Shown here: piece by piece, positions 1 through 45,312 of the stretch
Numbering within the stretch: the first letter of the stretch is position 1
Layout of the letters: each line of letters opens with the position of its first letter
Source: an uncultured Acidobacteriota bacterium
Lineage (GTDB): Bacteria > Acidobacteriota > Vicinamibacteria > Vicinamibacterales > Fen-181
DNA: 64,000 nucleotides
Direction of reading: 5' to 3'
Assembly: GCA_963783255.1 (NCBI GenBank)
Contig: CAWAMP010000022.1
Coordinates: forward strand, 566,761 to 630,760
The notes under the pieces: generated by a model
Database searches by the model: none
Told to the model about the DNA's origin: nothing
The model's input: only the letters and a program-made list of their open reading frames with translations
Made by a program: the position numbers and the translations under genes

Positions 1-39
1 ATCTCGCGATCGTGGGATCCGTCGCACGCCGCCGGTTTC

Positions 40-127
40 GCAAGGTCCCACGTTCGCACGATCCCTGGTTCGCACGATCCGTGGTTCGCACGATCTCCAG
101 TTCGCAAGATCGCAAGATCGCAAGATA
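40..127 (+). repeat. 8-nt-period tandem array, locus A (11 phased octamers ending 13 nt before the symporter ATG)
   Basis: Read in one phase: GCAAGGTC CCACGTTC GCACGATC CCTGGTTC GCACGATC CGTGGTTC GCACGATC TCCAGTTC GCAAGATC GCAAGATC GCAAGATA. A weaker same-phase signal continues back to nt 1 at the window edge. Period 8 cannot be coding, although ORF 12..1634 runs through it. Confidence 0.85.
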
Positions 128-140
128 CGAGATTCACCCT

Positions 141-1634
141 ATGGGTTTCTCCGCCATCGACTACGCCGTCCTGCTGGCGTATCTCCTCGGGATCACGATC
201 TTCGGGACGTTGTTCCGCAAATCGCATCGCTCGGTGAAGGACTACTTCGTCGGTACGAAGACGACGCACTGGCTGGTGATCAGCCTGTCGATTGTCGCCA
301 CGGAGACCAGCACACTGACGCTGATCGGCGTGCCGGCGCTGGCCTACTCGACCTACGCCCGGCCGGAGCAGGGCGGGGCGCTCACCTACCTGCAGGTCGT
401 GGCCGGCTATGTCATTGCGCGGGTGATCATCAGCTTCCTGTTCATCCCGGCCTATTTCCAGGGCGAGCTGCTGACGGCCTACGAGCTGCTGTCGCGCCGG
501 TTCGGCGCGGCCACGAAGCACTTCGCCGCCTCGCTCTTCCTGACGATGCGCGCGCTCGCCGAGGGGGTGCGGGTGTTCGCCGCCTCGCTGGTGCTGGCGG
601 CTGTGATCGGCTCGAGCCTGCCCGGGCTCCCCCAGCTGTGGCTCTGGTCGATCGTCCTCGTGGGCCTGCTGACGCTGATCTACACCTTCGAGGGAGGCAT
701 TGCCGCGGTCATCTGGACGGACCTGATTCAGCTGGTCATCTACATCGGCGGCTCGCTGCTCGCCGCCTGGCAGCTGCTGCACATGGTGCCGGGCGGTTGG
801 GCGGCGATCGCCGCGCACGCGGAGGCGGCGCACAAGTTCGAGTGGCTGTCCTTCTCCTGGGACCTGACGCTGCCGTTCACGTTCTGGGCGGGCCTCATCG
901 GGGGCACGTTCCTGACGATGGCGTCGCACGGCACCGATCAGCTCCTGGTGCAGCGGCTGCTGACGTGCAAGAACAAGCGCGACAGTCAGAAGGCGCTCAT
1001 CGCCAGCGGGTTCATCGTGCTGTTCCAGTTCGCGCTGTTCCTGACGATCGGCGTGATGCTGTACGCCTACTACCAGCACGCCCCGCTTCCGCCACTGACG
1101 AGCAACGACGAGATCTTCCCGGTCTTCATCGTGCACGCCCTGCCGAGCGGCATCGCCGGCCTGGTGATTGCGGCGGTGTTCGCGGCGGCAATGTCGAACC
1201 TGAGCGGATCGCTGAACTCGCTTGCGTCGACGACCGTTCTGGACTTCTACAAGCCGATCGCGGGGGCGGACCGCACCGACGCCCAGCTGCTCCGGCTTTC
1301 GCGCTGGTGCACGGCAGCGTGGGGCGTCGTGCTCATCCTGATTGCGATCGTCGCGCGCGGCTGGGGATCGGTGTTCACCGCGGGACTGTCGATCGCGTCT
1401 CTCGTCTACGGCCCGATGCTCGGTGCGTTCCTGCTCGGGGTCCTGACCACGCGCGCGACGCAGCCCGGCGTGATGACCGGGATCGGCGTCTCGCTCGGTT
1501 GCATGCTGATCGTCAAGACCTGCACGCCGCTGGCGTGGACGTGGTATGTGCTGGTCGGCACGGCCATCTGCGTCACCGTCGGCTTCCTCGTGAGCCTCGC
1601 GACGCCGGCGGCCGGCCGCCCGGCAAAGGGGTGA
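141..1634 (+). CDS. sodium:solute symporter (SSS) family transporter
   Basis: The first ATG in ORF 12..1634 gives MGFSAIDYAVLLAYLLGITIFG. The protein is hydrophobic throughout, with SSS-like spacing of helices. Upstream ORF residues are translation of the octamer array. Confidence 0.85.
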   Translation: MGFSAIDYAVLLAYLLGITIFGTLFRKSHRSVKDYFVGTKTTHWLVISLSIVATETSTLTLIGVPALAYSTYARPEQGGALTYLQVVAGYVIARVIISFLFIPAYFQGELLTAYELLSRRFGAATKHFAASLFLTMRALAEGVRVFAASLVLAAVIGSSLPGLPQLWLWSIVLVGLLTLIYTFEGGIAAVIWTDLIQLVIYIGGSLLAAWQLLHMVPGGWAAIAAHAEAAHKFEWLSFSWDLTLPFTFWAGLIGGTFLTMASHGTDQLLVQRLLTCKNKRDSQKALIASGFIVLFQFALFLTIGVMLYAYYQHAPLPPLTSNDEIFPVFIVHALPSGIAGLVIAAVFAAAMSNLSGSLNSLASTTVLDFYKPIAGADRTDAQLLRLSRWCTAAWGVVLILIAIVARGWGSVFTAGLSIASLVYGPMLGAFLLGVLTTRATQPGVMTGIGVSLGCMLIVKTCTPLAWTWYVLVGTAICVTVGFLVSLATPAAGRPAKG

Positions 1635-1637
1635 TCG

Positions 1638-2447
1638 ATGGCGCAGACGCTCAAGCTCCTCCTGGTGCCCGGGTCGGTGCCGTTCCTCGCCATCGGCCTG
1701 GCACTCGGCGTGGGTTTGCTGTACGGCGGCCCGCGACCTCAGCGCTGGGGCCGCGCGTGGCTGACAATCCTGCTGCCCTTCTACCTGTTCCTCTGCACGC
1801 CCCTCGGCGCCGACGTCGTCTCGGCGCCGCTCGCGTGGCGCCACGGGTCAATCGAGCGCGCGGAGCAGGCTGCGGGCGTGGACACCATCGTGGCGATCAC
1901 CACCGGAAGCTGGGTCTACAAGGCCCGAGGGCTCGAGGTGGACGAGATGGGCAGGTTCACCTCGCACAACGCGCTCGAGACCGCGCGCGTCTACCGGCTG
2001 ATGACGAAGCCGACGGTCGTCGTTACCGGGGGCATGGTCGTCGACGGCCAGCAGCGATTCGCCGAGGCCGAGGTGATGGCAGACGGCCTCACCCGCCTCG
2101 GCGTGCCGCGCGACCGCATCGTCCTCGAAACGCGTTCGCACAACACGAGGGAGCAGGCCGCGAACTCGGCCGAGATCCTCAGGAAGCGAGGGACGAAGAG
2201 GTTCGTCCTGGTCACCGACTCCGGGCACATGCCCCGGGCCCTCGCCGCGTTCCGCGCGCAGGGCCTCGACCCGGTGCCGTCCGTGTCGGTGCTGCGGGTG
2301 TGGACGCCGCCCGGGCTTCACCACCGGCTGCGTCCGACCCTCAACGCCTACCTCCAGGGCGAACGCGCGTGCTACGAGTACGTCGCCCGGGCGTACCACT
2401 GGCTTCAGGACACGCTGCGGCGGAACGGGCCACGATCGCGGGGCTGA
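1638..2447 (+). CDS. YdcF/ElyC-like DUF218 family protein
   Basis: The ATG lies 3 nt after the symporter stop. It has N-terminal TM segments and a Rossmann-like core (TIVAITTGS, VVVTGG, FVLVTDSGHMPRA) typical of DUF218. Confidence 0.65.
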   Translation: MAQTLKLLLVPGSVPFLAIGLALGVGLLYGGPRPQRWGRAWLTILLPFYLFLCTPLGADVVSAPLAWRHGSIERAEQAAGVDTIVAITTGSWVYKARGLEVDEMGRFTSHNALETARVYRLMTKPTVVVTGGMVVDGQQRFAEAEVMADGLTRLGVPRDRIVLETRSHNTREQAANSAEILRKRGTKRFVLVTDSGHMPRALAAFRAQGLDPVPSVSVLRVWTPPGLHHRLRPTLNAYLQGERACYEYVARAYHWLQDTLRRNGPRSRG

Positions 2448-2455
2448 AGCCCCGC
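2438..2455. repeat. GC hairpin element copy 1 (GCGGGGC-TGAA-GCCCCGC)
   Basis: A perfect 7-bp stem sits between convergent genes. The TGA stop of gene 1638..2447 lies in the loop. The same element occurs at 28147 and 30105. Confidence 0.8.
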
Positions 2456-2456
2456 G

Positions 2457-3644
2457 CTACACCGAGGCACGCCCGCCGTGCGGCTGCGGCTTCCACGGCG
2501 GCAGGAGCCGGATGAGCACGGCGAGGATGACGAACGGCAGGATGAGCAGCAGGACGGCGGGCAGCAACCCCTCGCGCGTGGCCCACTCCATCTTGTAGCT
2601 GGTGTAGCCGAGGAAGCTCTTCGAGAACAGCTGGCCGCCGATCACGACGTTCCAGCGCATCGCGAAGATGCCGACCATCGTCAGCGTGCCGGCGGTCGCG
2701 TAGATCCACTGCCTCGTCTTCGCCTTGAGCGCGACCAGTTGCGTCACACCCAGCATGCCCAGCGGCACCACGGTGCCGACGATGATCTGCAGGACGACCT
2801 GCGAGGTAAAGAGGCGGGTGCGCACCATGAAGTCGAGCGCGCGGAACGACTCGTCGGCCTCGTAGACCCGGTGGATGAGGTCCAGCATCTCGAGCGAGAA
2901 GTCGACCACGAAGGCGTAGAACAGGTACCGGGCGACCGTGTCGAGGCACTCCATGTCGAACCGGCGCTCGCGCCACCAGGCCGTGACCATGTACACCAGC
3001 ATCACGGCCGCAATGCCGGACACGATCGCCGAGAACAGGAAGACGATGGGCATCAGCGGCGTGGACCACCAGGGATTCGCCTTGATCGACCCGAAGATGA
3101 ACCCGACGTAGCCGTGCAGCAGGAACGCCGACGGGATCCCGATGACGGTCAGCGCACGTCCAATCCGATCGTCGAGCGCGAGCGCCTCCGGGCCGATGTT
3201 GTCCGACCAGAGCGCCATGGCCCCGTACAGCCACCGCTTCGGCCCGCGCGACTCCCGCCACGTCAGCACGATCTCCTTCCGGTAGTCGAGCCAGATCTCG
3301 AGCACGAGCACGACCATCAGGTACCACAGGTAGACGAACCCGAACATCGCCATCGCCGACTCGGTGTGCGGCGTCAGGTACATCTCGAGCGACCGCTCGG
3401 GATGTCCCAGGTGCAGTTGCAGCGGCAGCGGCGCCACCAGCAGGAACGCGAGGGCCGTCAGCAGCGCCAGCCGGTACGTGGGCTTGACGGCCTCGACGTT
3501 GAAGACGCGCTCGAGAGAGGCCAGGATGAACGCGCCGGCCACCAGCCCCGTGACGAACGGGTAGAGGACGATGAGCACGCTCCACTGGAGCTCCAGCTCG
3601 TTCGGGTACATGAACCCCTGCACTGCCGGCAGTACGCTCTCCAT
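2457..3644 (-). CDS. NrfD/PsrC-type polysulfide-reductase-like integral membrane subunit
   Basis: A 395-aa polytopic protein whose N-terminus LQWSVLIVLYPFVTGLVAGAF is characteristic of the NrfD family. GGAGG lies 6 nt upstream of the ATG. It is last in the operon with the ferredoxin and cytochrome genes. Confidence 0.85.
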   Translation of the reverse strand: MESVLPAVQGFMYPNELELQWSVLIVLYPFVTGLVAGAFILASLERVFNVEAVKPTYRLALLTALAFLLVAPLPLQLHLGHPERSLEMYLTPHTESAMAMFGFVYLWYLMVVLVLEIWLDYRKEIVLTWRESRGPKRWLYGAMALWSDNIGPEALALDDRIGRALTVIGIPSAFLLHGYVGFIFGSIKANPWWSTPLMPIVFLFSAIVSGIAAVMLVYMVTAWWRERRFDMECLDTVARYLFYAFVVDFSLEMLDLIHRVYEADESFRALDFMVRTRLFTSQVVLQIIVGTVVPLGMLGVTQLVALKAKTRQWIYATAGTLTMVGIFAMRWNVVIGGQLFSKSFLGYTSYKMEWATREGLLPAVLLLILPFVILAVLIRLLPPWKPQPHGGRASV

Positions 3645-12560: not shown

Positions 12561-12679
12561 AATCGCAAAGAGCCGGACCGTTTATTGTAGCCGATTCCCG
12601 CCCGTCACCGCCCTCGCCGGTCCCTCCTTCCTGTATCTGACGAAGCGCCGGTCGGAGGTTACAGGCGGCCGTCGGGCCG

Positions 12680-31180: not shown

Positions 31181-31846
31181 ATGAAGAAGCTCGCAATCGG
31201 GTGTGCGATCGTGCTCGTGGTGCTGATCGTCGTCGGCGGCATCGCCGGATACTTCATTTGGTCGAAGGTGGGCGGATCCATTACGGGTATCACGAAGTTC
31301 ACGACCAGCATGCAGGCGGTGGCGGAGATCGAGAAGGAGGTGAAGAACACCTCGTCCTTCACGGCGCCGGAAAACGGGGAGCTGACCGAGGAGACGGTGT
31401 CCCGCTTCATGAAGGTGCAGGCACACATGCAGTCGAAGCTCGGCAAGCGGGTGGACGAATTCAAGGCCACCTACGACAAGCTCGACAAGACGCTGAAGGC
31501 GGAACAGCGAGATGCGTCGTTCACGGAGGCGATGGGCGCGCTCGGGGATCTGGCCGCGCTGATCACGGATGCGAAGAAAGCGCAGGTCGAAGGCCTGAAC
31601 CAGGCCGGCTTCTCCATGCGGGAGTACCAGTGGGTCCGTACCCAGGCCTACGCGGCAGTCGGGGTGCTCGCCGGCGGCTTCGACATGACGAAGTTCGCCG
31701 AGCAGATAAAGGCAGGCGACGCCGAAGGGCTGTCGAAGGCTGACGCGGAATCGCTGCCTGACGTCCCCGAGAAGAACAAGGCACTGGTCGCGCCCTACGA
31801 AAAGCAGCTCAAGGAGTGGGCGCCGCTGGCCTTCTTCGGCTTCTGA
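31181..31846 (+). CDS. hypothetical membrane-anchored helical protein
   Basis: AGGAGG precedes the ATG. It has an N-terminal TM helix (LAIGCAIVLVVLIVVGGIAGYFIW) followed by a Lys/Glu-rich helical body. Its stop overlaps the next ATG (TGATG). Confidence 0.55.
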   Translation: MKKLAIGCAIVLVVLIVVGGIAGYFIWSKVGGSITGITKFTTSMQAVAEIEKEVKNTSSFTAPENGELTEETVSRFMKVQAHMQSKLGKRVDEFKATYDKLDKTLKAEQRDASFTEAMGALGDLAALITDAKKAQVEGLNQAGFSMREYQWVRTQAYAAVGVLAGGFDMTKFAEQIKAGDAEGLSKADAESLPDVPEKNKALVAPYEKQLKEWAPLAFFGF

Positions 31847-32517
31847 TGCGGGGGGCCATTTTCGACCTCGACGGCACGATCGTGGACAACATGCCGGTCC
31901 ACGCCGATGCCTTCGCGATCTTCGTCGAGCGTCACGGGCTCCGCCCGCTGACGCTCGACGACCGCAGGCGGCTCGACGGCCGCCGCAACCGCGACATCTT
32001 CCCCGATCTTCTCGGGCGCGAGTTGACCGACGCCGAGCAGGAGGCCTTCGCGGACGAAAAGGAGGCGCTCTACCGGGAGCTGTCGGTCGGGCGCCTGGCG
32101 CCGGCCGCCGGTTTCGTCAGGTTGCTCGACAGCCTGGCGGCCAGCGGCATCCCGGTCGCGGTGGCCACCTCGGCCCCTCCCGACAACGTGAATCACACGC
32201 TCACCGAGCTCGGCCTGGCCTCGCGCCTGACGTCGGTCGTTCGAAGCGACCAGGTGCCGCGGGGCAAGCCGTTCCCGGACGTGTTCCTGGCGGCGGCCGA
32301 GCGGCTGGGGGTGCCGGCGGCTGACTGCGTGGCGTTCGAGGACGCGCCGATCGGCATCGTCGCGGCGCGGACAGCCGGCATGACGACGGTGGCCATCGGC
32401 AGCAGCTTCTCGGCGGACGTCTTCCTTGCCCCTGAAGTCGGGGCAGACGTCGTCGTGAAGGACTTCGAGGAGTACCTGGACGGACCGGGACGGTGGCTCA
32501 CGCGCCCGAAAATGTAG
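31846..32517 (+). CDS. HAD-superfamily hydrolase (beta-phosphoglucomutase-like subfamily IA)
   Basis: HAD motifs are FDLDGT (motif I), VATSA (motif II) and K...FEDAPIG (motifs III/IV). Confidence 0.85.
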   Translation: MRGAIFDLDGTIVDNMPVHADAFAIFVERHGLRPLTLDDRRRLDGRRNRDIFPDLLGRELTDAEQEAFADEKEALYRELSVGRLAPAAGFVRLLDSLAASGIPVAVATSAPPDNVNHTLTELGLASRLTSVVRSDQVPRGKPFPDVFLAAAERLGVPAADCVAFEDAPIGIVAARTAGMTTVAIGSSFSADVFLAPEVGADVVVKDFEEYLDGPGRWLTRPKM

Positions 32518-32608: not shown

Positions 32609-35862
<3,254 letters not shown>

Positions 35863-35866
<4 letters not shown>

Positions 35867-37284
35867 GACTCGCCTCCCCGCTCGCCGCGCTGGCCTCGCT
35901 GCCCGCCGCCCTCGGCGCCGGCACCGGGCCGGCCGCCGCCCGGCTGCCCGCCGCCTTGCGAGCCGCCCTGCCGTCCGCCCGGGCCGCGGCGGCCTCCGCC
36001 TTCCTCGCCCGTGCCAACCTGCACGCTCATGCCGGTCGCCAGCTCGTTGAGCCGGTTGTTCGCCAGCGTTTCGTCGCCCTTCAGCCCCTCCACGATCTCC
36101 CACAGGGGACCCTGACGAACGCCGAGCGTCACCTGCTGCTGCGTGATCCGGCCGTTCCTGATGACGTAGACCGACGAGACGCCGGCCAGGGTGGATACGG
36201 CGGTGTCGGGAACGGCCAGCACGCCTTCATCCTTGTTCGTGAGGATCACACCCTTGGCGAAGAACCCGGGCTTCAGCCGGCGGTCGGTGTTGTCCACCAG
36301 CGCCTCGACCGCAAACGTCCGCATCGTCTGATCCAGCGACGGACTCACGTAGGCCACCTTGCCGTGGAACAGCGTGTCGCCGTACGACTCCACACGAAAC
36401 TCGACCGGCTGCCCGGGCTGGATGAGGCCGGCGTGCTTCTCCTGCGCCCCCGTGCGCAGCTTCAACGGATTCACCTGGACGATGGTCGCGACCACGGTGC
36501 GCTCGCTGATGTACTCGCCAACCTGGACGGGACGTTCCGACACGATGCCGGAGATGGGAGCCCGCACCGTGGCGTCGTTGAGCTTCTTCACCGCCAGATC
36601 GTAGGACGCCCGGCGGTCCTGCAGCAACGCCTTCTGGCCGCGCATGGTGTCGGTGGCCGACTGGTGGGCGGCTTCGGCCACCTTCAGCCTCGTGTCGGCG
36701 GCCTGCAGGTCGGAGGGCGATACGATGCCCTTCCCGGCCAGCGTATGGATCCGGTCCGCGGTGGCTTTGGCGTCGAGGTAGGTCGCGTATGCGTTCTTGA
36801 CCGACGCGACCTCGTCGTCCGGCGGCGGGTTGTCGCCTTCTTCGAGCGGCCCATGCATTCCGAGCTGGGCCCGCGTCTGGCGCAGTGCGCTTTCCGCTCG
36901 GGCCAGCGCGAGCTGCAATTCCCTCGGCTCGAGCCTCACGAGCGGGGTGCCGACCTTCACCTCGGCGCCAATCTCGACCATCACGGCGCGCACCACGCCG
37001 GCCGCCTCGGCGCTCACCTTCGCCTGGTCGGGCGACAACAGCGTGCCGGCCAGGTCGACCATGCGCTGGACGCTCATCCGCTGAACCGTCGTGGAGCGGA
37101 CGCTCACCGCCGGGCCTCCCCGGCCGCCGCGAGCGCCGCCGCCGGCTCGGGCCCCAGAGGCCGCGCCGCCGCCCGAAGCCGGCGCGCCAGGCGCGGAACC
37201 GCCGCAGGCGGAAAGAACCACCGCCAGAAGTCCAGCCAGGACCGCCAGGCGCAAGGACACAGGTCGTTCGATGATCTGGGCCAT
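35863..37284 (-). CDS. RND periplasmic adaptor (membrane fusion protein) with Gly/Arg-rich termini
   Basis: The ATG at 37284 gives a lipoprotein-like N-terminus (LLAVVLSACGG). It has hairpin, lipoyl and beta-barrel regions (GTPLVRLEPRELQLALARAESAL). The C-terminal 50 aa are Gly/Arg/Gln rich. Confidence 0.85.
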
Positions 37285-37487
37285 GAGAAGGAATCCGAAA
37301 TCAAAACACAGCAGGAGCCGGGCACACCACAGACGTCGGAGTCTACTACGACAGGTGGCTGGCACTCGCTTACCCGGACCCGTTCGAGGCCCGCGGACTC
37401 CGGGCCGGACTTTTCTCTGGTGCGTGTAAGCAACGGGATGGAGTGCGCCGTATATCGCTGGTGGACCTAGAGCAACCCACCTCCCTT

Positions 37488-37518
37488 GGGGCCCCTTGCG
37501 AAAAGGGGCCCCCTTTTT
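37488..37518 (+). terminator. orphan Rho-independent terminator-like hairpin in a divergent spacer
   Basis: GGGGCCCCTT-GCGAA-AAGGGGCCCC (perfect 10-bp stem) is followed by C and TTTTT. It lies 85 nt upstream of the DUF2339 ATG. No plus-strand gene lies upstream. Confidence 0.6.
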
Positions 37519-37602
37519 CACCCTTTGCAGTAACATCCGCCGGACGATCATTCAAGTCTGGGCAGAACCGACCCGGGGTGCTCCCGGGGGAGGACCGAAG
37601 CC

Positions 37603-40600
37603 ATGTTGCTGGTGGTTCTCGCGCTCGTTGTCCTGTTCATCGTTGTCGTCCGGTTGGCCTCGAGGGTCTCGGACCTCGAATCACGCGAATCCGAATCGGC
37701 GGAAACGCTGTCCCAGCTCAGCCGGAGGCTCGACGAGTTGGCAAGGGCGTCGGGCCCGGTACGGCAGGCCGCTGCGGCTCCTGCCGGCCCTGCCCCGGCC
37801 GGCCCTGCCCCCGCTGCCACGCCACCCCCAGTCGTCCTGACACCGCCGCCAGTGGTCGCCGAACCGGTCGCCGCCGTGGAACCGGTGGCGCGGTCCGTCG
37901 AGGCGCCACCCGTTCTGGCGCCGCCCCCGCCCGTGGCCGTTCGCATCCCGGAACCGTCCGTCGCGACCGAGGGGCCGAAGACGACCCCCGATGCCTTGGC
38001 TGCCGCCGAGGCGGAGGTGCCGGCGGCCGAGCGCAAGCCGGCGTTCGATTGGGAGGAACTGGTCGGCGTCCGGCTCTTCTCGTGGGCCGCAGGGATTCTG
38101 CTCGCCCTGGCCGCGGTCTATTTCCTGGGCTACTCGATTCAGAGGGGCTGGCTGCAGCCGCCGGTGAGGATGGCCATCGGGACGGCGGTGGGCATCGGCC
38201 TGCTGGTCGGGTGCGAACTGAAGGCCGCACGCCGATACCCGGTCACGGCGAACGCCCTCGACGGTTCGGCCGTCGCGATCCTGTTCGCCACGTTTTTCGC
38301 CGCCTACCGGCTGTGGGCGCTACTCAGTCCGGTCGTGGCGTTCGGGCTGATGGCCCTGGTCACGGTGGTGGCGGTGCTGCTGTCGATCCGGCGCGACTCG
38401 GTGTTCATCGCCCTTCTGGGACTCGTCGGGGGCTTCTCGACCCCGGCGCTGCTCTCGACCGGCCAGGACAACCCGGTCGGCCTGTTCAGCTATCTCCTGA
38501 TGCTGAACGCCGGCCTCGGCTGGGTGGCCTACAGGAAGCGATGGCCGGTGCTGGTCGGGTTGAGCCTGCTCTTCACTACGCTCTACCAGTGGGGCTGGGT
38601 GACGACGTTCCTCACACGCGACAGCGGCAATCAGGGGATTGCCACGGCGATCTTCCTGGCGTTCCCGACGCTGGGCTATGTGTCCCTCGGCCTGGCGGGC
38701 AGGTCGGGCGCGCTCGACACGGAGGCCGAGGACGGGCGGCGGCCGTGGTTCGAGGAAATCGCCCGGATGAATGCGGCGCTGCCGCTGCTGTTTGCGTTGT
38801 TCATGGCCACGTCGGAAGCCTACGGCGGGCACCCGGCGCTGATGTTCGGGTTCCTGTTCTGCGTCGACGCCGGGCTGTTCGCGGTCGCGCTCTGGCGCCG
38901 CCAGCCAATGCTGCACGTGCTCGGCGGCATCGCGACACTCCTCGTATTCGGGGCCTGGATGAGCAGGCTCTACGGCGGGACCGTGCCGGTCGACGTGGCC
39001 GACGGGTCTGCGGCCGCCTACCCGGTGAGCCTCGGCTACGTGAGCCTGTTTGTCGTGCTCTACCTGGCATCGGGGCTGACCGCCCGTCGCGGCCCCGTAC
39101 GGCTCGAGGGCGTCGGCCGGCTGGCGAGCTACGCCGCGCCGCTGCTGCTCTTCGTCTTCCCGACGGTGCTGGCCTCGGACCCGGGCGCGGCATGGCCGAC
39201 GCTCCCCTTCACCGTGCTTTTTGCACTCCTTGCCGCCTGCGCCGCGTTCGCCGCGTTCGAAGGCGAAGGCGTCGTCTACTTCATCGGCGCGTTCGTGGCG
39301 GTGGCCGCCGAGGCGGCCTGGTCCGCCCGGCACCTGGCCGGCGACACGCTCCTCCATGCGGTGGCCATCTACGGCCTGTTCGGCGTCCTGTTCCTCTTCG
39401 TGCCAATGGCAGCGAGGCGATGGGCGAAACCGCTCCAGCCCGAGTGGCTGGCCGGCGCGGTCCTCGTCGCAAGTATCGCGCTGCTCTTCTTCCTCTCGAA
39501 CGAGGCCGTGGCGCCCGAATCGCTCTGGGGCCTGGCCCTCCTGCTCGGCGTGCTCAACATCGCGCTCCTGGTTGAAACGAGGGCGGCGGGGTTGCGATGG
39601 CTCGCGGTTGGGGGCGGGGCGTTGTCGTGGGTCGTGATCGGCGCGTGGTGGGCCGGCGGCACGCTGACGAGCCAGGTCGTGCCCGCCGTGTCCGTCGTCG
39701 CCGGGTTCGGGCTCCTGATGCTCGGCGGCCAGCTCTGGGCCGGCGGCGAGGAGGCGGCGGACGACGCGACCCAGGCCGGCATGTCGCTGACGCTCGTCGG
39801 CCACGTGTTCATGCTGGCCGTCGCGGCCCGGCAGGCGCTCTCGATTCCCCCGTGGCCGATGTTCGCGGCGCTCGCCGCGCTGGACCTGGCGGTGGCTGCC
39901 GCCGCGCTGCGCACGCGGCGGGCCGAGCTGCTCGCGGCGGCGCTCGGACTGTCGCAGATCGATCTGATCGTCTGGGCGGCCGTGGGGGGCTTCAGCCCGT
40001 GGCCGCTCACCGCGATGCTCGCCGGCAGCGTCGTGGCCGCGCTCGGCCTCGGGTGCGCGGCGATGGCGGCCACGCTCGTCACCGAAGAGACCCTGCGAGA
40101 GCGTTTCCACATGGCCGCCGCGATCTCGGTCATCCTCGGTGAGGCGCTGCTGGTCGTGGCCGCTGCCGTCAGCGAGCCACCCGCCGCGATCGTGCTCGCG
40201 GCGTTCCACCTGCTGTTCCTCGTCGCACTGCTCGCTCTAGCCTCCTTCATGCGCTGGTACGTGCTGGCGATGGCGGCTGTCGCCCTCACGTGGGTCGCCA
40301 CCTGGGGTTGGCAGTCGACGCACAGGGGCCCCGACGGCTGGGTGGACGTGCTCGCGCTGGCGACGCCAATCTACCTGGCGTTCGTGGTGTACCCGCTGGT
40401 CCTCGGCAAGCGGGTCGGGCGCGAGATGTGGCCGCACCTGGCTGCCGTCCTGGCCAGCGCGTCCTTCTTCCACGTCGCCCGCCTCAGCATCGTGGCGGCC
40501 GGCTACGAGGACTTCATCGGCGCGCTGCCGGTGCTGCAGGCCGCGCTGCTCGGCGTCGTCCTGGCCGGCCTGTTGCGCGTCGAGCCCCCCGACGGCCGGA

Positions 40601-41340
40601 CGCTCGGCCGGCTCGCGCTCGTCGCCGGTGCGGTGCTGGCCTTCGTCACCGTCGCCATTCCGCTGCAGTTCGACAAGCAGTGGATCACGCTCGGGTGGGC
40701 GCTCGAGGGCGCCGCGCTCGCGTGGCTCTACCGGCGCGTCCCGCATCGCGGCTTGTTCTGGTGGGCCATCGGCCTGCTGGCGGCGGTCTTCGTGCGGCTG
40801 GCGCTCAACCCCGAGGTGCTCGTCTACCACGCGCGGAGCGAGGTGCCGATCCTCAACTGGTACCTCTACACGTATCTGACGTCGGCCGCGGCCATGCTCG
40901 CGGCGGGCTGGATGTTCTCGACGACCGACGACACCGTGGCGGAGCCGCTGCGGGGATCGCAGATGGCGCCCGCTGCGGGCACGATCCTGCTGTTCCTGCT
41001 GATGAACATCGAGATCGCCGACTTCTTCGCCACCGGCGACACGATTCGCTTCAACCTGTCGGCCGGCCTCGGGCAGAACCTCACCTACACGCTCGGGTGG
41101 GCGGTGTTCGCCGTGGCGCTCCTGGCGACCGGCATCGCGCTCCGCTCCCACGCCGCGCGGCTGGCGGCGATCGTGCTCCTCACGGTCGCCGCACTCAAGG
41201 GTTTCCTCTCGGATGTGGCGCGGCTCCCGGGCCTGTACCGCGTGATGTCGCTCGTGGGCCTCGCCATCTGCCTGTCGCTGGTGGCCGTCGTGCTGCAGCG
41301 GTTCGTGATGGCACCGAGGAAGTCGGAGAAGCAGGAATGA
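37603..41340 (+). CDS. DUF2339-like giant polytopic membrane protein
   Basis: A 1245-aa protein with GGAGG before the ATG. It has an N-terminal TM helix, an acidic coiled segment and a Pro/Ala/Val-rich linker. FDWEELVGVRLFSWAAGILLALAAVYFLGY follows, and hydrophobic segments then continue to the C-terminus. Confidence 0.75.
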   Translation: MLLVVLALVVLFIVVVRLASRVSDLESRESESAETLSQLSRRLDELARASGPVRQAAAAPAGPAPAGPAPAATPPPVVLTPPPVVAEPVAAVEPVARSVEAPPVLAPPPPVAVRIPEPSVATEGPKTTPDALAAAEAEVPAAERKPAFDWEELVGVRLFSWAAGILLALAAVYFLGYSIQRGWLQPPVRMAIGTAVGIGLLVGCELKAARRYPVTANALDGSAVAILFATFFAAYRLWALLSPVVAFGLMALVTVVAVLLSIRRDSVFIALLGLVGGFSTPALLSTGQDNPVGLFSYLLMLNAGLGWVAYRKRWPVLVGLSLLFTTLYQWGWVTTFLTRDSGNQGIATAIFLAFPTLGYVSLGLAGRSGALDTEAEDGRRPWFEEIARMNAALPLLFALFMATSEAYGGHPALMFGFLFCVDAGLFAVALWRRQPMLHVLGGIATLLVFGAWMSRLYGGTVPVDVADGSAAAYPVSLGYVSLFVVLYLASGLTARRGPVRLEGVGRLASYAAPLLLFVFPTVLASDPGAAWPTLPFTVLFALLAACAAFAAFEGEGVVYFIGAFVAVAAEAAWSARHLAGDTLLHAVAIYGLFGVLFLFVPMAARRWAKPLQPEWLAGAVLVASIALLFFLSNEAVAPESLWGLALLLGVLNIALLVETRAAGLRWLAVGGGALSWVVIGAWWAGGTLTSQVVPAVSVVAGFGLLMLGGQLWAGGEEAADDATQAGMSLTLVGHVFMLAVAARQALSIPPWPMFAALAALDLAVAAAALRTRRAELLAAALGLSQIDLIVWAAVGGFSPWPLTAMLAGSVVAALGLGCAAMAATLVTEETLRERFHMAAAISVILGEALLVVAAAVSEPPAAIVLAAFHLLFLVALLALASFMRWYVLAMAAVALTWVATWGWQSTHRGPDGWVDVLALATPIYLAFVVYPLVLGKRVGREMWPHLAAVLASASFFHVARLSIVAAGYEDFIGALPVLQAALLGVVLAGLLRVEPPDGRTLGRLALVAGAVLAFVTVAIPLQFDKQWITLGWALEGAALAWLYRRVPHRGLFWWAIGLLAAVFVRLALNPEVLVYHARSEVPILNWYLYTYLTSAAAMLAAGWMFSTTDDTVAEPLRGSQMAPAAGTILLFLLMNIEIADFFATGDTIRFNLSAGLGQNLTYTLGWAVFAVALLATGIALRSHAARLAAIVLLTVAALKGFLSDVARLPGLYRVMSLVGLAICLSLVAVVLQRFVMAPRKSEKQE

Positions 41341-42293
41341 CACGCCGCGCAGCGACCGCGCTGCTGGCACTCGCAGCCGTCCTGGTCGTCGCGGACGGTT
41401 CGGTGATCGCCGCCCCGCAGGCGGCGCCGTCGGCGGCCGGAGGCGCGTCCATCGACCGCGGAACGTTCGAGCACCAGCGCCGGATCCCTCCCGGCCCGAT
41501 CGGCGTCTCGCTGCTGCGGCTCGATGTCCAGGCCCTGGCCCATGCCCGGCTGGCCGACGTCCGCCTGGTCACGGCCGACGGGTTTCAGGTGCCCTATGTG
41601 CTCGAGAACGACGAGACGCCGTGGCGCATCGAGCTCGCGCCGTTGGTCGCGGTCGACGAGCCACGGGTCGCGGCTCGCCTGAGTCAGAGGCAGGGCCGGT
41701 CGCGCAGCGTCTACCAGATCGTGTTCCCGATCGCCGGGATGCCGCCGTGCGACCTCATCCTCGAAACGAACGCGCGGGTATTCGAGCGCGAAGTCAGCCT
41801 GCTCGTGAAGGACGACGGGCGTCGGAGACGGCCGCCAGGGGATTGGGAGACGGCCGCATGGGCGGCGTGGCGGCATGCGGACCCCGACACGCCGGCGGCA
41901 CCGCTCGTCCTCCACCTGCCCCGCCTGCCCGTGCCGGGATCGGCCACGGGCCGCCTGGTTGTAGACGAGGGGGACAACCGGCGGTTGCCGATCGCCGCGC
42001 CGAGGATCGAGGTGCGAACCTGTCGGCTTCGGTTCGTGAGGGAATCGCCCGACGAGATGTGGTTGGTCTACGGACGGGCGGGACTGACCGCGCCGCAGTA
42101 CGACCTGGCACTGCTCGACCGACGGCTACGCAGGTCGGAGGCTCACGAGGTGATGGCCGAGGCCGAACGGCCGGCGGGCGGCCCCGAGTTCGACGGCCGT
42201 TCGCGAGCGGTGTTCTGGGGGGTACTGATCGCGGCGGTGGTGGCGCTGCTGGCCGTCGTCGCCCGGCTGCTGATGTCGCAGCCGGGCCGCTGA
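41337..42293 (+). CDS. secreted, C-terminally anchored protein (DUF3999-like; family name tentative)
   Basis: Its ATG overlaps the upstream TGA (ATGA at 41337-41340). The 318-aa product has a signal peptide, a beta-rich body and the C-terminal TM helix VFWGVLIAAVVALLAVVARLL. Confidence 0.6.
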   Translation: MTRRAATALLALAAVLVVADGSVIAAPQAAPSAAGGASIDRGTFEHQRRIPPGPIGVSLLRLDVQALAHARLADVRLVTADGFQVPYVLENDETPWRIELAPLVAVDEPRVAARLSQRQGRSRSVYQIVFPIAGMPPCDLILETNARVFEREVSLLVKDDGRRRRPPGDWETAAWAAWRHADPDTPAAPLVLHLPRLPVPGSATGRLVVDEGDNRRLPIAAPRIEVRTCRLRFVRESPDEMWLVYGRAGLTAPQYDLALLDRRLRRSEAHEVMAEAERPAGGPEFDGRSRAVFWGVLIAAVVALLAVVARLLMSQPGR

Positions 42294-43536: not shown

Positions 43537-43686
43537 GGCGCCTGGCGGTTTGGTGCTACACTTTCTTCGGGACTCCCAACACGAATATCGCTGGTTCCCG
43601 CCAGGACGGCACGCGTCGACTGCGGCGTACCCTCTGGTTCGGTGGCTCGGTTCCACGTCCGGCATCCGGGAGATTGGCTTCGCAGC

Positions 43687-45312
43687 ATGCACATCCTGTT
43701 GTACGTCCCCGACAACCACGTCACCCGCAACTTCCTGCCGCAGCTGTGGCCGTTCATCCTGAAGGAACGGACGCCGCCTGGCCACCGCGTGACGATTATC
43801 GACGGCAACGCCCAGCGTCTGACCGTCGCCGAGATCGTGCAGTTCGTGCGTGACGAGGACGTGGATCTGGTCGGCATGGGTTTCATGACGCGAATGGCGC
43901 GAGCCGCCTACCGGCTCGCAACCGCCATCCGCGCCGAGACGCGCGCGAAGGTCGTCCTCGGAGGGCCCCATGTGACGGGGTTGCCCGACGAACCGCTCGG
44001 CCGGACGGGAATTCCCCGCATGGCGGACGCGATCGCAATCGGCGAAGCCGACGACATCTGGGCCGAGATCGTCGCGGATGCCGAGCGCGGGACGCTCGCG
44101 GACACCTACGGCCCGGACGGGCACGGCGTCAAGCCCACGCTCAAGGATTACCGTGCCGTCGACTGGGAAACGGTGGATCTCGGTCTGTTCGACCTGATGC
44201 GGTTCGCGCCCAGGTCGGTTCGGCGGCTCTTCACCGCAATGCACATCCCGTTCCAGAAGGCCTACTTCATCCCGGTCGAATCGGGCCGCGGGTGTCCGTA
44301 CGGCTGCGAGTTCTGCACGGTCACCGGGTTCTTCGGCCGGGAGCTCCGCTTCCGGTCGAACGAGAGCGTCATCGCCGAACTGCTCGCGCTCAAGCGGGTG
44401 GCCAAGCGAGACCGCGCGCTGGTGAGCGTCTTCTTCGTCGACGACAACTTCGCGATCAACAAGAACCGGCTGAAGTCGCTCCTGCGTGACATGATCCGCT
44501 ACGACGCCTGCGTGCCGTGGACCGGGCAGATCAGCGTCAACCTGCTCGACGACGAGGAACTGGTCGACCTCATCGGCCGGAGCAACGGTCGTTTCATCTT
44601 CATGGGCCTCGAGTCGGTGGACGCAGACAGCCTGAAGAGCGCGCGCAAGGCATTCAACAAGCCGGCCGACTACGCGCGCATCCTCGAGCGCATGGCCCGC
44701 CACGACGTCTACGCGGTGACCTCGTTCATCGTCGGACTGGACGGCGACCGGCCGGGAACCGCGGACCGGATCGAGGCGGAGCTCGTGAAGTGGCCGCCGG
44801 TGCTGCCGGTGTTCGGGCTGCTCACCCCCTACCCGTCGACGCCGTTGTACGACAAGCTCAAGGCAAGCGGACGGCTGCTTCGGCCCACGCACTGGCTCGG
44901 AGGCGAAGCGTTCAAGGCGACGTTCGAGCCCGAGGGGTTCACGACCGAGATGTTCGAGGCGGAGCTTCGGCGCGCGTGGGCGCGCGCTTATCGGCCGGCG
45001 TCATTCGCGCGCTCGCAGAAGTGGATGCTCTCCCAGGGCAAGGGGATGGAGAAGCAGGTGACGTTCTTCATCACCCGGATGCTGTTCCGCGGCATCTACT
45101 TCCCGCAGGCGTCGGGGTGGAACTGGGTGCGGCTGCTCGCCGCCAACCTGCCCACCATCACCAGCATCGTGGCCCGTCAGCTGCTGGGGGGCCGGCCGAA
45201 GACCGCCGCGCCGGCGGCGGTGCAGGCGCCGGCGCCTGAACTGGTGGCGGCCGTACCCGCCGACGGGCCCGCCCGCGCGTTTGCCTCGGAGGATGGTTCG
45301 GCCGCGGCGTGA
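43687..45312 (+). CDS. B12-binding-domain radical SAM protein (DUF4070-type C-terminus)
   Basis: It has an N-terminal cobalamin-binding-like domain (MHILLYVPDN...VDLVGMGFMT). The radical SAM cluster motif is GRGCPYGCEFCTV (CxxxCxxC). Length is 541 aa. Confidence 0.85.
   Translation: MHILLYVPDNHVTRNFLPQLWPFILKERTPPGHRVTIIDGNAQRLTVAEIVQFVRDEDVDLVGMGFMTRMARAAYRLATAIRAETRAKVVLGGPHVTGLPDEPLGRTGIPRMADAIAIGEADDIWAEIVADAERGTLADTYGPDGHGVKPTLKDYRAVDWETVDLGLFDLMRFAPRSVRRLFTAMHIPFQKAYFIPVESGRGCPYGCEFCTVTGFFGRELRFRSNESVIAELLALKRVAKRDRALVSVFFVDDNFAINKNRLKSLLRDMIRYDACVPWTGQISVNLLDDEELVDLIGRSNGRFIFMGLESVDADSLKSARKAFNKPADYARILERMARHDVYAVTSFIVGLDGDRPGTADRIEAELVKWPPVLPVFGLLTPYPSTPLYDKLKASGRLLRPTHWLGGEAFKATFEPEGFTTEMFEAELRRAWARAYRPASFARSQKWMLSQGKGMEKQVTFFITRMLFRGIYFPQASGWNWVRLLAANLPTITSIVARQLLGGRPKTAAPAAVQAPAPELVAAVPADGPARAFASEDGSAAA

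Follow-up and report, generated by a model that had tools for sequence, protein, structure and literature searches.

Comparative analysis of the 318-nucleotide (nt) spacer between two divergent operons of an uncultured Acidobacteriota bacterium, located at positions 37285 to 37602 of a 64,000-nt stretch of DNA (hereafter the window, with positions counted from its first letter), suggests that the spacer is composed of three separable transcription modules. These are a promoter-like element (P_RND) facing a resistance-nodulation-division (RND) efflux operon, a small RNA unit preceded by its own promoter-like element (B1), and a further block (B2) in front of a gene for a giant membrane protein of the DUF2339 family. 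A preliminary description of the window had pointed to an intrinsic terminator inside this spacer, and had proposed that it belongs either to a leader of the DUF2339 operon or to an independent small RNA of up to 200 nt. The comparative evidence favours the small RNA, with a length of about 57-60 nt in place of the 200 nt, and we consider it moderately likely that transcription from B1 to the terminator at 37488-37518 yields a discrete small RNA. It is put forward here as a new, lineage-restricted candidate small RNA family, together with two previously undescribed candidate promoter-like motifs.

A terminator maintained by selection

Direct reading of the plus strand at positions 37488-37518 gave GGGGCCCCTT-GCGAA-AAGGGGCCCC, followed by C and TTTTT. 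The stem comprises ten pairs, eight of them G-C, with a folding energy of about -22.8 kcal/mol, and the element has the composition of an intrinsic terminator, that is, a G+C-rich hairpin with a U-tract directly after it. The hairpin was found exactly as first described, and the same holds for its surroundings: the start of the RND adaptor gene at 37284 (minus strand), the start of the DUF2339 gene at 37603 (plus strand), and the distance of 85 nt between the T-run and the DUF2339 ATG. The G+C content of the window is 68%, and a strict scan of both strands over its whole 64 kb (at least seven perfect pairs, at least five of them G-C, a loop of 3-8 nt and at least five T in eight positions) returned this hairpin as the sole match. 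A looser scan revealed nothing terminator-like near the tRNA-Gly and tRNA-Cys genes, so that the hairpin is even more singular than in the preliminary description, where a second U-tract hairpin had been assigned to tRNA-Gly.

Related loci, designated below by L numbers, were located through a DUF2339 protein search in species-representative genomes (41 loci), a metagenome DNA-pattern scan (one further locus, L042) and the contigs of DUF2339 homologues with 58-87% identity (seven further loci). All the close DUF2339 loci belong to metagenome-assembled genomes (MAGs) of uncultured Acidobacteriota. Both nhmmer and a covariance model recognised the core of the spacer once in each of 13 loci, the window among them, and every other DUF2339 locus checked lacked it. 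The covariance model, built from positions 37459 to 37518, detected exactly one copy per related locus (13/13, 36-98 bits) and no copy in nine more distant Acidobacteriota DUF2339 loci. In DUF2339 loci at an identity of 52% or less all three modules were absent, which indicates that the system is restricted to one lineage.

The hairpin and its T-run were conserved in all 13 loci. Folding of each sequence on its own yielded stems of 7-10 bp in the relatives, with energies of -17 to -23 kcal/mol and 5-8 U, and loops that vary freely in length from 4 to 10 nt. In the covariance-model alignment, which is fitted to the structure and in which several changes are common to close relatives, 93.5% of the cells were paired and six of the ten pairs were changed on both sides; neither any of 500 shuffles nor any slid register matched these values, and the independent per-sequence folds agreed with the pairing. 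An alignment made with MAFFT only mis-registers the 3′ arm, and the per-sequence folds and the covariance-model alignment were used in its place. Compensatory changes were observed at pair 6 (C-G to U-A in L050), pair 7 (C-G to U-A in L001, L002, L042 and L047) and pair 8 (C-G to G-C in L045), pair 5 is G-U in L044, and the stem shows a register shift in L048. These compensatory changes indicate that selection acts on the pairing of the RNA. In the covariation analysis of orthologous spacers that had been suggested as a check, the terminator stem covaries and nothing else in the spacer does.

A predicted small RNA of about 60 nt

Alignment of the 13 loci showed that the conservation of the spacer is not spread evenly but is confined to sharply bounded blocks. 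The sequence upstream of B1 is unrelated between subclades, and the conserved unit begins at B1, which ends about 7 nt upstream of the small RNA unit of about 60 nt. Past B1, about 8 variable nt are followed by a loose RGAYC, 7 variable nt, the invariant stretch ACCCACCTCC, (C)TT, the hairpin and 5-8 T. At the RNA level, ACCCACCUCC was unchanged in 13/13 loci while adjoining positions vary, and ACCCACCUCC(C)UU is complementary to ribosome-binding sites of the GGAGG type; in six loci the stretch reads CACCUCCUU, the sequence of the canonical 3′ tail of 16S rRNA. A 5′ hairpin, GGUGG/CCACC, can be drawn in the window, but it was rejected as a conserved element because it is broken in L044, L045, L001 and L050, and the ACCCACCUCC stretch is thus probably single-stranded. 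It is conserved and apparently accessible, and this invariant C/U-rich stretch is likely the seed that pairs with targets.

A coding function of the region, either through the open reading frame (ORF) at 37443-39575 or through tiny ORFs, was discarded on account of 1-nt indels and changes of loop length across the loci, which indicate that the small RNA stretch is non-coding. Regarding the length of the transcript, B1 is preceded in several relatives, at a distance of only about 25 nt, by the divergent RND promoter or by the terminator of a plus-strand gene, which leaves no room for a longer conserved RNA. The earlier observation that no plus-strand gene lies upstream of the hairpin holds in the window, although L001 and L042 do carry a plus-strand gene of the HAD family at this place (3156-3830 in L001 and 204-880 in L042), homologous to that at window 31816-32517. 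This gene ends in a hairpin of its own (AGACTTTCGC...GCGAAAGTCT), which precedes B1 by about 25 nt, with the conserved unit beginning past the gene.

A search with Rfam 15 at gathering score identified only three tRNAs in the window and gave no match in 12 orthologous loci; the preliminary description had likewise failed to match the 200 nt upstream of the hairpin to a riboswitch class by eye. When matches with E values up to 10 were admitted for positions 37150-37750, only BjrC68 (RF02353) and mmgR/alpha-r8 (RF00519, 'suhB') appeared, with E values of 0.05-0.9. Membership of both families was rejected, with scores of 17.7 bits against a gathering threshold of 39 for BjrC68 and 16.5 bits against 41 for mmgR, and the sub-threshold alignments cover only the CCUCCC stretch and the terminator. 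The element shares with these alphaproteobacterial RNAs a C/U-rich CCUCCC directly before a G+C-rich terminator, but its host belongs to another phylum, the Acidobacteriota, and the likeness is limited to these two parts.

Table 1. Features of the spacer and of its flanking operons in the window
Feature	Position	Strand	Basis and remarks
RND efflux operon, divergent (HlyD/RND adaptor lipoprotein 35863-37284; permease ~32609-35869)	32609..37284	-	Pfam, NCBIfam
P_RND, GTAAGC-N17-CGTA, promoter-like, facing the RND adaptor/permease operon	37347..37373	-	Exact motif match; promoter function predicted
B1, GTAAGC-N17-CGTA continuing as CGTATAT, predicted small RNA promoter	37426..37452	+	13/13 loci; promoter activity predicted
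Predicted small RNA, ~57-60 nt	37459..37518	+	5′ end estimated within ~4 nt; 3′ end in the T-run
Invariant ACCCACCUCC, C/U-rich, anti-Shine-Dalgarno-like candidate seed, then (C)UU	37475..37484	+	13/13 loci
Intrinsic terminator	37488..37518	+	10-bp stem 37488-37512, then C, then T5 at 37514-37518
B2, GTAAC(ATC)-N17-TCA-N8-CAGA, predicted promoter and start region of the DUF2339 operon	37530..37566	+	13/13 loci; promoter function predicted
DUF2339 (Arc3A-family) giant membrane protein gene, 1245 aa	37603..41340	+	Pfam PF10101, E = 4.9e-76
Downstream ORF in Arc3B-like position, weakly DUF3999-like	41337..42293	+	Overlaps the DUF2339 stop codon (ATGA)

A two-box motif faces both the predicted small RNA and the RND operon

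The pattern GTAAGC-N16-18-CGTA occurs twice in the 64-kb window, against 0.08 matches expected, and none of 100 shuffles contained two. Both matches are located in this spacer, on opposite strands and pointing apart, and correspond to P_RND and B1. In B1 the GTAAGC box occupies positions 37426-37431 and the CGTA box positions 37449-37452, followed by T-N-T. Across the 13 loci 24 copies of the motif were found, 13 of them preceding the small RNA unit and 11 the RND operon, with the consensus gTAAGCg-N14-G(C/T)CGTA. None of these copies departs from TAAGC, the G at -2 or CGTA, and all but one have the N17 spacing (23 of 24), with the 14 letters of the spacer free to vary. B1 was invariant in TAAGC, G(C/T)CGTA and the N17 spacing in 13/13 loci, whatever the upstream gene, and its 17-nt spacer is free to vary except for the G two positions before the CGTA box. 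P_RND was conserved as (G/C)TAAGC-N17(16)-GTCGTA in all 11 loci with a divergent RND operon, and reads CTAAGC in L002 and L047; transcription from it would start near 37340, resulting in a 5′ untranslated region (UTR) of about 55 nt.

The distance between P_RND and B1 varies from 24 to 89 nt among loci, which indicates two separate modules, and each copy of the motif keeps its orientation and its distance relative to the unit downstream. A unit of two boxes that keeps its direction and its distance to what follows is promoter-like, and is unlike the site of a dimeric regulator. A scan for sigma-70 promoters revealed no promoter-like site in positions 36800-38000. A sigma-54 reading of CTGGCACTCGCTTAC was rejected because the spacing is wrong, the sequence is not conserved in L003, and its reverse strand fits TAAGC-N17-CGTA.

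The two boxes, the 16-17-nt spacer and the CGT-containing -10 box are those of promoters read by extracytoplasmic function (ECF) sigma factors, and we infer that TAAGC-N17-CGTA is a promoter of this type, with AA in the core of the -35 box, CGTA(T) as the -10 box and 17 nt between them. Since no cognate sigma factor was found in the window or the loci searched, the term ECF-type refers here to the form of the motif alone. The sigma-W promoter of Bacillus subtilis reads TGAAAC-N16-CGTA. CGTATA and CGTAT are the -10 consensus sequences listed for the groups ECF11 and ECF18 (PMC13492112, Table 4), and CCGTATA was mapped at the CnrH-dependent promoter cnrYp (PMC13492112). The motif resembles these promoters with a CGTA-type -10 box in its two boxes, the length of its spacer, its CGTA(T) and its AA core; it differs from them in the -35 box, GTAAGC here and GAAC/GTAAC-like in the others, and in the lack of an autoregulated sigma gene, none having turned up in the window and the 50 loci searched.

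Between the divergent promoters of the window, GGCCCG-CGGACTC-CGGGCC GGACTTTTCT forms a minor G+C-rich hairpin followed by a T-rich tail (37388..37412, plus strand). Only the closest relatives share this hairpin, and loci whose two promoters lie 24-25 nt from each other lack it; the T-rich tract upstream of B1 also recurs among the closest relatives alone. The hairpin is probably spacer material.

The RND side of the spacer

The RND permease resembles multidrug-type RND permeases, with scores below the family cut-offs. In L001 and L042 the RND operon and the minus-strand copy of the motif are absent, and B1, the small RNA, B2 and the DUF2339 gene are retained; this arrangement indicates that the RND operon is an indel between the HAD gene and the small RNA. 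In all loci with the operon the start region of the adaptor gene is pyrimidine-rich and lacks a Shine-Dalgarno sequence, so the adaptor mRNA is not expected to be a target of the anti-Shine-Dalgarno seed. The start codon is preceded by a conserved CGGAT(A/T)..(C/T)TC-ATG (window 37285-37346, minus strand, as well as L002, L003, L007, L043-L048 and L050), and a conserved GT(G/A)GTGTGCC is found in the 5′ UTR about 25 nt past the -10 box. In L044, L045, L050, L002 and L047 this 5′ UTR carries an extra hairpin and a CCCACCGTCAAC block. In L007 (positions 1-3500) tblastn matched the RND permease and adaptor in many pieces and in different frames, and the genes are either frameshifted pseudogenes or the product of long-read assembly errors in the MAG.

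The B2 block stays with the DUF2339 operon

Past the T-run, 10-24 variable nt are followed by B2, in which GTAAC(A/G)TC (from 37530 in the window) is separated by 17 nt from TCA (37552), and CAG(A) follows after another 8-9 nt (37563). One exact copy was present in each of the 13 loci, in most of them 70-73 nt from the DUF2339 start codon, with a GGAGG-like ribosome-binding site and the start codon after the block, about 70 nt past GTAAC. The geometry of B2 (GTAAC-N17-TCA) is that of B1, and the block is vaguely RpoE-like, with the invariant CAG at the place expected for a transcription start.

The block is separable from the small RNA unit. L045 carries a 12-nt insertion between the T-run and B2, and in L050 the unit and B2/DUF2339 are 1.1 kb and one inserted gene apart. 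In this locus B1, the small RNA and the terminator remain beside the RND operon, and B2 lies directly upstream of DUF2339 at 2950-2990 (GGTAACGTCC...TCATTCAGGA...CAGAACC). As B2 stays with DUF2339 when the small RNA unit is separated, it is the own 5′ element of DUF2339, most simply a promoter, and a DUF2339 transcription start downstream of the hairpin is predicted in addition to an RNA end at 37518, without replacing it. The gene inserted in L050, at 1874-2797 between the small RNA terminator and DUF2339, encodes a secreted protein with a NAGPA domain (PF09992), and behind it, at 2800-2950, a segment of about 20 nt, TTCTACGTTCTCAGTTCTTC, is present in two tandem copies. A copy of the B2 pattern with one mismatch, GTAACCTC-N14-TCA, is located on the minus strand of the window at 12638-12662.

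In the window the ORF that follows the DUF2339 gene matched DUF3999 with an E value of 0.002, below the cut-off, and had no NCBIfam match; its orthologues in L048 and L050 carry marks of PF13163. The proteins of the DUF2339 family are the Arc3A family (PMC8926400). In Pseudomonas aeruginosa, Arc3A and its neighbouring partner protect against phospholipase toxins, and arc3AB is switched on through the Gac/Rsm small RNA pathway (PMC8926400). The order of a DUF2339 gene and an overlapping partner gene is the same in both organisms, and the P. aeruginosa system provides a precedent for a small RNA linked to an envelope-defence module; the RNAs themselves are unrelated, since those of the Rsm pathway titrate a protein via GGA motifs, and the one predicted here is C/U-rich, with the opposite motif. 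The assignment to the Arc3A family makes envelope defence the theme of the neighbourhood, a theme typical for ECF sigma factors. Past the DUF2339 pair synteny is partly conserved, with genes for eIF-1a/InfA-like, RRM_1 RNA-binding and B12-binding radical SAM proteins (window 43642-45312, plus strand), and a Peptidase_M28 gene is also located downstream of the pair in relatives.

Alternative explanations

The terminator might instead belong to a leader of the DUF2339 operon, as the other proposal of the preliminary description had it. B1 would then be the promoter of this operon, the terminator a conditional stop that depends on a riboswitch, a protein or the ribosome, the anti-Shine-Dalgarno-like stretch an element acting in cis, for instance on the DUF2339 ribosome-binding site, and the short RNA a by-product. 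Several features of the locus suit such an arrangement: as in known riboswitch and attenuator leaders, the terminator lies in the 5′ intergenic region upstream of an operon, the small RNA unit is directly upstream of DUF2339 in 12 of the 13 loci, and the seed can pair with a GGAGG-like DUF2339 ribosome-binding site in every locus, although with a cis pairing energy that in most loci is no better than with shuffled sequences. Furthermore, the next ORF in L050 begins right at the T-run, with no room for a promoter of its own, and functional read-through is implied.

Other observations led us to regard a leader as unlikely. No Rfam aptamer was matched at any meaningful threshold, and only about 30 nt precede the stem. 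Neither RNAalifold nor the folding of single sequences revealed a conserved antiterminator upstream of the terminator, the latter being the only structure detected and the only one with covariation. A pairing between the -10 region of B1 (GCCGU) and B2 (GCGGU) that was suggested by RNAalifold was discarded, since its columns are either invariant, without covariation, or broken, as by the C-A mismatch in the window and in L043. Unlike a riboswitch or attenuator leader, the element has no aptamer or alternative structure, it is followed by a promoter-like block, and it can be separated from the gene. The obligate linkage without an intervening promoter that is expected of a riboswitch was not observed, given that the invariant B2 separates the terminator from DUF2339 in 12 loci, tolerates an adjoining 12-nt insertion, and stays with DUF2339 in L050, where the small RNA unit is separated from the gene. 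In addition, the same promoter motif also fronts an unrelated operon. A riboswitch, attenuator or T-box leader is accordingly not retained as the main function, and control of the giant membrane protein by a riboswitch is probably not the function of the element.

An insulator appears improbable. According to this explanation, the hairpin would only stop stray plus-strand transcription from the divergent promoter region before it reaches DUF2339, without an RNA product of importance, and ACCCACCTCC and the boxes would be conserved as DNA sites of regulators. The whole 318-nt spacer folded no better than shuffled sequences (z = 0.11), which indicates that it holds no large structured RNA, the predicted RNA lacks conserved structure in its 5′ part, and no target was found, all of which would suit an insulator. 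It would leave unexplained, however, the invariant 10-nt stretch immediately 5′ of the stem, as well as the two-box motif, which keeps its direction and its distance upstream of the unit in 13/13 loci, including L001 and L042, which have no divergent promoter, and it does not account for the selection on RNA pairing that the compensatory changes reveal.

Least probable is that TAAGC-N17-CGTA represents the sites of a transcription factor, such as a pump regulator, with any small RNA starting elsewhere: eleven loci do carry two inverted copies before an efflux operon, a usual place for repressor operators, but the 24-89 nt between the copies, the single copies that persist in L001 and L042, the fixed orientation and distance of each copy to the unit it precedes, a geometry (a 5-6-nt box, a 17-nt variable spacer and CGTA) that is that of a promoter and not of a palindrome or direct repeat, and the lack of an adjacent regulator gene all speak against it.

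It has to be said that some observations also weigh against a small RNA transcribed from an ECF-type promoter. The 13 loci represent one clade with several close relatives, so the number of independent evolutionary events is lower than the number of sequences suggests. No RpoE-like or SigW-like ORF was detected by tblastn in the window and 50 loci, the motif was found nowhere else in the window, and GTAAGC was not found in the literature as a described -35 box. The position of the 5′ end of the small RNA is an estimate, for which a start 6-10 nt past CGTA was assumed, as is usual for ECF promoters. Regarding targets, in most loci the seed paired with the ribosome-binding region of DUF2339 no better than with shuffled sequence, and the seed-complementary sites in the window were not at start codons or ribosome-binding sites and included no convincing target. 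Finally, the ATG of the ORF inserted in L050 abuts the T-run, so that this gene would be transcribed through the terminator; the unit also acts there as a 5′ leader, and read-through is used at least in this locus.

Proposed model and implications

In the model that we propose for the discrete small RNA, one alternative sigma factor of the ECF type would read both copies of the motif. P_RND would drive the adaptor/permease operon (module 1), and B1 a transcript of about 57-60 nt, roughly 37459-37518, that ends at the terminator (module 2), the small RNA being co-induced with the efflux pump by the same sigma factor. The RNA would consist of a poorly conserved 5′ part, the single-stranded ACCCACCUCC(C)UU and the Rho-independent terminator, and the ACCCACCUCC seed would pair with ribosome-binding sites of the GGAGG type in target mRNAs and block their translation by occlusion. 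The DUF2339/DUF3999-like (Arc3AB-like) operon would be transcribed from its own block B2 (module 3), and may receive some read-through from B1.

Such an RNA has known counterparts. MicA, RybB and MicL are sigma-E-dependent small RNAs of Escherichia coli and Salmonella, and FoxJ is reportedly a sigma-E-dependent small RNA of Fusobacterium. Like these, the predicted molecule would be short, would be transcribed from an alternative-sigma promoter of its own, would end in a Rho-independent terminator and would carry a short, single-stranded, conserved seed; it would be co-regulated with envelope functions, here the RND pump, and it adjoins an Arc3A-like membrane-defence operon. Unlike these, it shows no kinship to them in sequence or in Rfam, its seed is located just 5′ of the terminator and not at the extreme 5′ end, its promoter boxes are TAAGC and CGTA and not those of RpoE, and it is predicted from sequence comparison. 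As sigma-dependent small RNAs with a C/U-rich seed are of a well-known kind, the proposal is an annotation lead and not a conceptual surprise.

A wider and quite speculative view, to which we assign a low probability, is that of a compact envelope-defence regulon in which one ECF-like sigma factor would induce both the RND pump and the 60-nt RNA, with CACCUCC(C)UU masking the Shine-Dalgarno sites of selected or many mRNAs. The pump mRNA would escape this masking because its start region is pyrimidine-rich and has no Shine-Dalgarno sequence, and the Arc3AB-like operon would be tied to the circuit via read-through or via the related GTAAC-N17-TCA promoter.

The Acidobacteriota are a dominant and mostly uncultured phylum of soils, and to our knowledge almost nothing is known of their promoters, alternative-sigma regulons or regulatory RNAs; likewise, we know of no account of how Arc3A-like (DUF2339) operons are controlled outside Pseudomonas. 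Where canonical terminators are almost lacking, as in this genome of 68% G+C, a single textbook example can usefully mark a small RNA gene. Altogether, the locus yields a promoter motif, TAAGC-N17-CGTA, and a candidate small RNA family absent from Rfam, and it suggests a regulatory link between an efflux pump, a small RNA and an Arc3A-like membrane-defence operon, possibly the first regulatory handle in this uncultured clade. If the regulon exists as outlined, no regulatory small RNA and sigma-factor regulon of this type would have been described in Acidobacteriota before.

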